Of a stretch of DNA of 64,000 nucleotides, positions 48,016-48,430 are shown one piece after another (within the stretch, counting starts at the first letter, position 1; each line of letters starts with the position of its first letter). The DNA is taken from the NCBI RefSeq assembly GCF_030384885.1, contig NZ_CP128613.1, one strand, 5' to 3'. The translations under genes were made by a program, and so were the position numbers. The notes beneath the pieces are model-generated. The model was not told the DNA's origin. It ran no database searches and saw only the letters and a list, made by a program, of their open reading frames with translations. This stretch comes from Escherichia coli (GTDB lineage Bacteria > Pseudomonadota > Gammaproteobacteria > Enterobacterales > Enterobacteriaceae).

Positions 48016-48255
48016 TCAAACCATCACCAGCGATAACTCTTTGCCAAGCGCCTTAGCCGCAAGCTGGACGGCGTCGATTTTTGTCGCATGGTGCAAGTTA
48101 AATAAGCGAGTAATTTCCTGTTTAGGTTTGCCAATTCGCCTGGCTAACTCTTGCTGAGTGATTTCTGACTGTAAAAAAGCATTTAACAGCAATACCTTAG
48201 AGGCGACGCTCAAAGGCACTTCAATAAAGTGATCGTGACTATTTAATGGCGAAGT
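48016..48255 (-). pseudogene. hicB: 3' remnant of antitoxin hicB (C-terminal DNA-binding part); hicA and the hicB 5' part absent
   Basis: Reading frame encodes ...SPLNSHDHFIEVPLSVASKVLLLNAFLQSEITQQELARRIGKPKQEITRLFNLHHATKIDAVQLAAKALGKELSLVMV but is closed by an in-frame TAA at 48256-48258; no HicA-like ORF upstream. Confidence 0.6.
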
Positions 48256-48430
48256 TTACCTCCGTGTGTAATGTGCTCGAAAATAGCACTAAATCGCCGC
48301 AACGGCAGAATGCAATGCAAAATCAGGAAGGAAGATTCCAGAATTTCTTTGCGCTAATTTGCAAAACTGAATAATAACCTCAAGAAACGATCGGCATCAT
48401 AGCGGCAAAAGGTCAGAAAAAGGTGGCGAG

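Follow-up and report, generated by a model that had tools for sequence, protein, structure and literature searches.

The window, a 64,000-nucleotide stretch of the Escherichia coli chromosome (contig NZ_CP128613.1, assembly GCF_030384885.1), carries a remnant of the antitoxin gene hicB between ydcR (46531–47937, minus strand) and yncJ (48431–48661, plus strand, ATG at 48431), with rlhA/ydcP (48753–50756, minus strand) beyond yncJ. All three flanking genes lie as in K-12, the alignment is collinear with the K-12 order ydcR-hicB-hicA-yncJ, and the interval sits in a conserved stretch of the chromosome. The remnant (48016–48255, minus strand) consists of 79 sense codons followed by a TGA stop at 48018–48016. 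An in-frame TAA (48256–48258, minus strand), part of a retained half-site, GTAAAC, ends its frame on the upstream side; the longest stretch within it that opens with a start codon is a 67-residue ORF beginning at a GTG (48016–48219, minus strand). Codons 2–79 of the stub (78 residues) are 100% identical to residues 61–138 of K-12 HicB (tblastn, E = 3.8e-48), a span that takes in the final strand of the N-terminal domain, the linker and the complete helix–turn–helix (HTH) domain of the protein whose structure is deposited as PDB 6HPB. Over these residues the window differs from K-12 by six synonymous nucleotide changes and no amino-acid change, and DNA identity over the retained 240 bp is ~97.5%.

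The only Pfam domain found in the stub is HTH_3 (E = 5.5e-8, stub residues 29–75), which is HicB's DNA-binding domain at the C terminus, and its sequence is identical to K-12 HicB 88–134. Full-length K-12 HicB carries in addition HicB_lk_antitox (PF15919, residues 3–67), the HicA-neutralizing N-terminal domain, for which Pfam gives no match in the stub; no NCBIfam model matches either the stub or full-length HicB. The toxin gene is missing as well. The ORF list holds no HicA-like frame in the 172 bp that separate the TAA from the yncJ ATG (48259–48430), K-12 HicA (which in a control search matches HicA_toxin, PF07927) has no homologue in the whole 64-kb window by tblastn (best E = 2.8), and the 445 bases deleted relative to K-12 give only chance matches of 12–16 nt in the same 64 kb by blastn. 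With hicA, the HicB N-terminal domain and the associated elements described below all missing, the locus cannot act as a toxin–antitoxin pair. The earlier note on this DNA, made from the letters alone, had recognized the C-terminal DNA-binding part of HicB as the only portion left in frame, had placed the closing TAA correctly, had sized the stub at 67–80 residues (the GTG ORF has 67, the open frame 79 codons) and had seen no HicA-like ORF in the ~170 bp before yncJ; each of these points holds.

Rfam and tRNA scans return nothing within the stub interval. Elsewhere in the window Rfam identifies a SECIS element inside fdnG (4682–4740, minus strand, 84 bits) and the RydC sRNA near cybB (63903–63966, plus strand, 80 bits), both expected for the region. 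It also detects a group II intron (24164–25981, minus strand) that adjoins an ISAs1-family transposase and an rhs/vgrG cluster, with domains D1–D4 at 25864–25981, Intron_gpII at 24164–24239 and a reverse-transcriptase/maturase ORF between them. A second singleton related to toxin–antitoxin systems, the orphan toxin gene ortT, lies at 39032–39205 (minus strand) according to the matching RefSeq record.

Alignment of positions 47930–48440 with K-12 and with strain 98206 reveals a single 445-bp gap in otherwise collinear DNA. In K-12 locus coordinates the lost segment is 1955–2399; it comprises hicB codons 1–60, the 45-bp hicA–hicB spacer, all of hicA (2179–2355) and the 44 bp that precede its GTG. 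The junction occupies 48253–48255 of the window, where the hicB side ends with 48253 and the hicA-upstream side begins with 48255. It reads GGCGAA-G-TTTACC, and the central G at 48254 can be assigned to either side, a microhomology of 1 nt. The proposal of the earlier note, that toxin and antitoxin N-terminal domain had been deleted from a HicAB locus that has since decayed, is borne out: the alignment with K-12, a strain with intact hicAB, shows one gap, the hicA gene and the PF15919 domain are absent while chromosomal position and HTH domain are kept, and the RefSeq annotation concurs. RefSeq records 48016–48252 as a partial hicB pseudogene, ‘incomplete; missing N-terminus’, as it does in every carrier of the deletion that we inspected.

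Since the microhomology amounts to 1 nt only, we infer that the deletion arose by illegitimate recombination and not by direct-repeat slippage. The K-12 sequence contains a 10-nt imperfect inverted repeat at the two breakpoints, CGAAGGTAAA at 1951–1960 and TTTACCTCCG at 2401–2410 (9 of 10 positions complementary), which suggests that a transient stem formed by CGAAGGTAAA and TTTACCTCCG brought the ends of the deletion together. Inverted-repeat pairs of at least 7 nt number 18 in the 561 bp of K-12 sequence examined, so that some coincidence is to be expected for the breakpoint repeat.

The deletion is common. Among 5426 complete E. coli genomes a 901-bp query matches 5416; the length of the matched span separates a deletion allele (901 bp), intact hicAB (1346 bp) and a hicA allele lacking 22 bp (1324 bp). 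Carriers of the junction were counted in the same 5426 genomes with a 44-nt probe that has the junction at its centre and can seed only across it; a 100-bp junction query does not separate the alleles, as matches to its two halves are joined in intact genomes. The junction 44-mer occurs in 1087 genomes (20%), 1055 of them at least 99% identical to it, and the carriers include UTI89, ST131 and NC101, as well as EPEC E2348/69 through a derived allele with a further 144-bp deletion. UTI89 belongs to phylogroup B2 according to PMC7167474. An identical junction in 1087 independent complete genomes is neither a chance pattern nor an assembly artefact, and the nearest record, strain 2013C-4282 (NZ_CP027579.1), is 100% identical to the window over the 901 bp; a sequencing or assembly error confined to one genome is therefore untenable as an explanation. 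Across the wider window a ~4.4-kb rhs core/vgrG segment of NZ_CP027579.1 is absent at about 27978–28984; outside it the identity is 99.8–99.99%, with 99.99% from 28980 to the end. A larger deletion is seen in FDAARGOS_943, where 36 bp separate a shortened ydcR from a truncated rlhA, with the loss of both the hicB stub and yncJ.

All other alleles sampled (K-12, O157:H7 and other lineages) encode full-length, 138-residue HicB, as does Escherichia marmotae, which identifies the long form as ancestral. The opposite polarity, a short ancestral form into which hicA and the 5′ part of hicB were inserted in other lineages, would explain the bare presence/absence polymorphism and nothing more. It is virtually inconceivable, as the stub begins in mid-domain with no start codon, its junction splits a perfect 7+7 palindrome down the middle, and the site is occupied by full-length hicAB in K-12, O157:H7 and others, with HicB also in E. 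marmotae.

The junction is present on at least three flanking haplotypes: the main B2 type, the type of the window, which resembles strain 23AR0303 on the left, and the type of strain elppa4, which resembles K-12/PRO_A on the right. This distribution, together with CGAAGGTAAA and TTTACCTCCG at both K-12 breakpoints, could be taken to mean that the 445-bp deletion recurs, driven by the bracketing 10-nt repeat, and did not spread from a single origin by recombination. We regard recurrence as unlikely. The same junction with 1 nt of microhomology would hardly form twice, E. coli recombines freely, and the breakpoint repeat may itself be coincidental given the density of such pairs; one origin, a later substitution at 48273 and recombination in the flanks account for the haplotypes.

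The deletion also reached the control region of the module. In K-12 a perfect 7+7 palindrome, GTAAACA-CTAA-TGTTTAC, lies at locus coordinates 2388–2405; it and the extended −10 motif TGATATACT are found 20–50 bp upstream of the hicA GTG, within or at the edge of the lost 44 bp, and the start predicted from TGATATACT falls on the hicA Shine–Dalgarno sequence. Published descriptions, PMC7167474 among them, place a HicB-repressed promoter beside the hicA start, and on account of this and of its position we read the palindrome as the probable HicB operator (hicO) and TGATATACT as the probable promoter P2. In the window the left half of the palindrome, GTAAAC (48254–48259, minus strand), is retained and the right half is deleted. 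The autoregulated promoter with its putative operator would thus no longer be intact, GTAAAC alone remaining, and the deletion appears to have taken P2 together with the right operator arm. A further feature of the K-12 sequence is a candidate 54-codon minus-strand ORF (2231–2395) that overlaps hicA in a different frame; its strong GGAGG-N9-ATG start, with the ATG inside the spacer of the operator-like palindrome, is deleted in the window.

The DNA upstream of the lost segment, the yncJ–hicA intergenic region (48256–48430, minus strand), is retained and collinear with K-12. An Sxy/CRP-dependent upstream promoter of hicA, P1, is known from the literature and is probably kept within this interval. 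Its candidate extended −10, TGCTATTTT, lies at 48288–48280 (minus strand), and a weak candidate for a CRP-S-like site, TGCGC-N6-GCAAA (motif taken from PMC6728893), at about 48348–48365. Both promoter candidates, for P1 and for P2, were picked out by eye as extended −10 motifs; a generic sigma-70 and terminator scan flags neither of them in the window interval or its K-12 counterpart, its sole hit being in the hicB–ydcR spacer. Low-level transcription from P1 through the stub toward ydcR is plausible.

A rival reading is that of a living gene, in which a 67–79-residue HTH protein made from the retained promoter would serve as an orphan DNA-binding regulator. For such a gene speak the complete HTH_3 domain, the uninterrupted frame with a protein identical to K-12 in the window, the retained upstream region in which no terminator-like site is predicted, and the title of the 6HPB paper, which calls E. 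coli HicB's HTH domain structurally stable. The translation signals argue against it. There is no in-frame ATG in the stub before residue 137 and no Shine–Dalgarno sequence for any of its in-frame start codons: the duplex free energies are +0.3 kcal/mol for the GTG at 48219 and −0.5 kcal/mol for the TTG at 48213, compared with −11.1 kcal/mol for K-12 hicA and −3.0 kcal/mol for native hicB. The latter value is itself weak and the HTH domain is complete, so low-level translation from the GTG at 48219 may occur. In the protein collection the only exact match to the 67-residue product is a nameless gene prediction from 12 short contigs. The frame is, in short, truncated relative to its full-length orthologues and has no start codon that comes with a ribosome-binding site, as befits a pseudogene and as RefSeq labels it; moreover, a regulator of this kind would have lost half of its putative operator target.

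Carriers of the deletion provide a further test of constraint. Twelve deletion alleles were compared with eight intact alleles over codons 61–138 by site counts. Changes private to the deletion alleles are eight non-synonymous (M137I, K127N, K127E, A116V, P103H, G101S, K79N and S89stop) and two synonymous, one of the latter being the change of the stop from TAA to TGA. The intact alleles show 5 non-synonymous and 17 synonymous changes, with none of the non-synonymous ones in the HTH_3 region (residues 88–134). The contrast is significant (Fisher p = 0.005; p = 0.04 when shared sites are dropped from both sets), and the ratio of 8:2 is compatible with a neutral expectation of ~74% non-synonymous, an assumed value. 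Variants of the deletion alleles that are common to intact alleles are all synonymous, which marks them as inherited or recombined polymorphism.

Outright disruption is also found among the carriers. The nonsense change S89stop (TCA to TAA, window-equivalent 48167) is present in two of them, elppa4 and isolate 3702594. The right flank of these two, including yncJ, is K-12-like and not B2-like, which points to recombination beside the scar. A secondary in-frame deletion of 144 bp (window-equivalent 48051–48194) takes out the greater part of the HTH in 27 genomes, E2348/69 among them.

We considered whether the conserved protein sequence of the window stub could be a sign of selection and rejected this. 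Of its six synonymous differences from K-12, four (48061, 48097, 48105 and 48115) also occur in the intact 23AR0303 allele and are for that reason uninformative on selection after the deletion, and other carriers drift; the amino-acid match of the window stub to K-12 is no evidence of function.

Selection is thus relaxed and the frame further disrupted in the carrier lineages, within the small sample of 12 and 8 alleles, and the start codon, ribosome-binding site and purifying selection expected of an orphan antitoxin or a stand-alone HTH regulator were not found. With 8:2 private changes, a nonsense codon and the 144-bp internal deletion in E2348/69 and 26 other genomes, a living gene at this locus is very improbable. 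Judged from sequence, a protein product of the stub is unlikely, and the remnant is most likely an inert, drifting relic; the suggestion of the earlier note that the stub is possibly still expressed finds no support, in view of the missing in-frame ATG and Shine–Dalgarno sequence, the apparent loss of promoter and operator half and the decay in carriers. We think it extremely unlikely that the retained Sxy/CRP promoter of hicA now drives the HTH stub, as a DNA-binding protein of the competence regulon, or read-through into ydcR. If it did, the deletion would have rewired regulation in ~20% of E. coli rather than merely erased the module.

Taken together, the locus is very probably the dead remnant of a chromosomal hicAB type II toxin–antitoxin operon, left by one 445-bp deletion. 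In type II systems the joint loss of the toxin gene and the toxin-binding domain of the antitoxin never leaves free toxin. Here a single deletion removed hicA, the HicA-binding N-terminal domain of HicB and 44 bp upstream of hicA, a safe, non-lethal exit from the module. The 3′ part of hicB, linker and HTH, is now fused to the distal part of the hicA-upstream region, which supplies the in-frame TAA. We regard the scar as old and as the standard allele of phylogroup B2 and its relatives; the stub has since drifted neutrally, while the window copy by chance still specifies the ancestral protein.

The finding is already known, since the loss of hicAB in phylogroup B2 has been published (bioRxiv 10.1101/486399) and the pseudogene is annotated in RefSeq; an uneven distribution of toxin–antitoxin systems among phylogroups is the subject of a 2015 paper cited in PMC7167474. 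By itself the locus is of little importance, but it offers a clean, datable case of safe loss of a chromosomal toxin–antitoxin system in one event, and the scar, in 1087 of 5426 genomes including major extraintestinal pathogenic B2 clones, is a handy lineage marker. With the 445-bp and 22-bp alleles counted together, 35% or more of the complete E. coli genomes lack a working HicA at this locus, which bears on the extrapolation of K-12 hicAB results to clinical strains.

Four known systems invite comparison. The hicAB module of K-12 (hicA b4532, hicB b1438) occupies the same site between ydcR and yncJ as the remnant in the window, and possesses hicA, the PF15919 domain, the hicB start codon, the start-proximal promoter and the whole palindrome, all of which the window lacks. 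The hicB pseudogene of B2 strains such as UTI89, ST131 and NC101 has the same junction at the same coordinates relative to ydcR and yncJ; the main B2 alleles add P103H, K127N and K79N, whereas the window allele encodes the ancestral protein and has flanking variants of its own. The 22-bp allele (strain 98206, for example), present in 809 of the 5426 genomes and annotated as ‘frameshifted’, likewise inactivates hicA at this locus and is also common. Its deletion lies within hicA between CGCA direct repeats (locus coordinates 1212–1213 in strain 98206, equivalent to about 2213–2234 in K-12) and keeps hicB and the promoters intact, so that a full-length orphan antitoxin is left where the window has a stub. 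Outside the Hic family, the chromosomal type II system ccdO157 of E. coli, described as ‘slowly decaying’ (Mine et al., 2009, as cited in PMC7167474), is another case of decay within the species, at a different locus and in a different toxin–antitoxin family.
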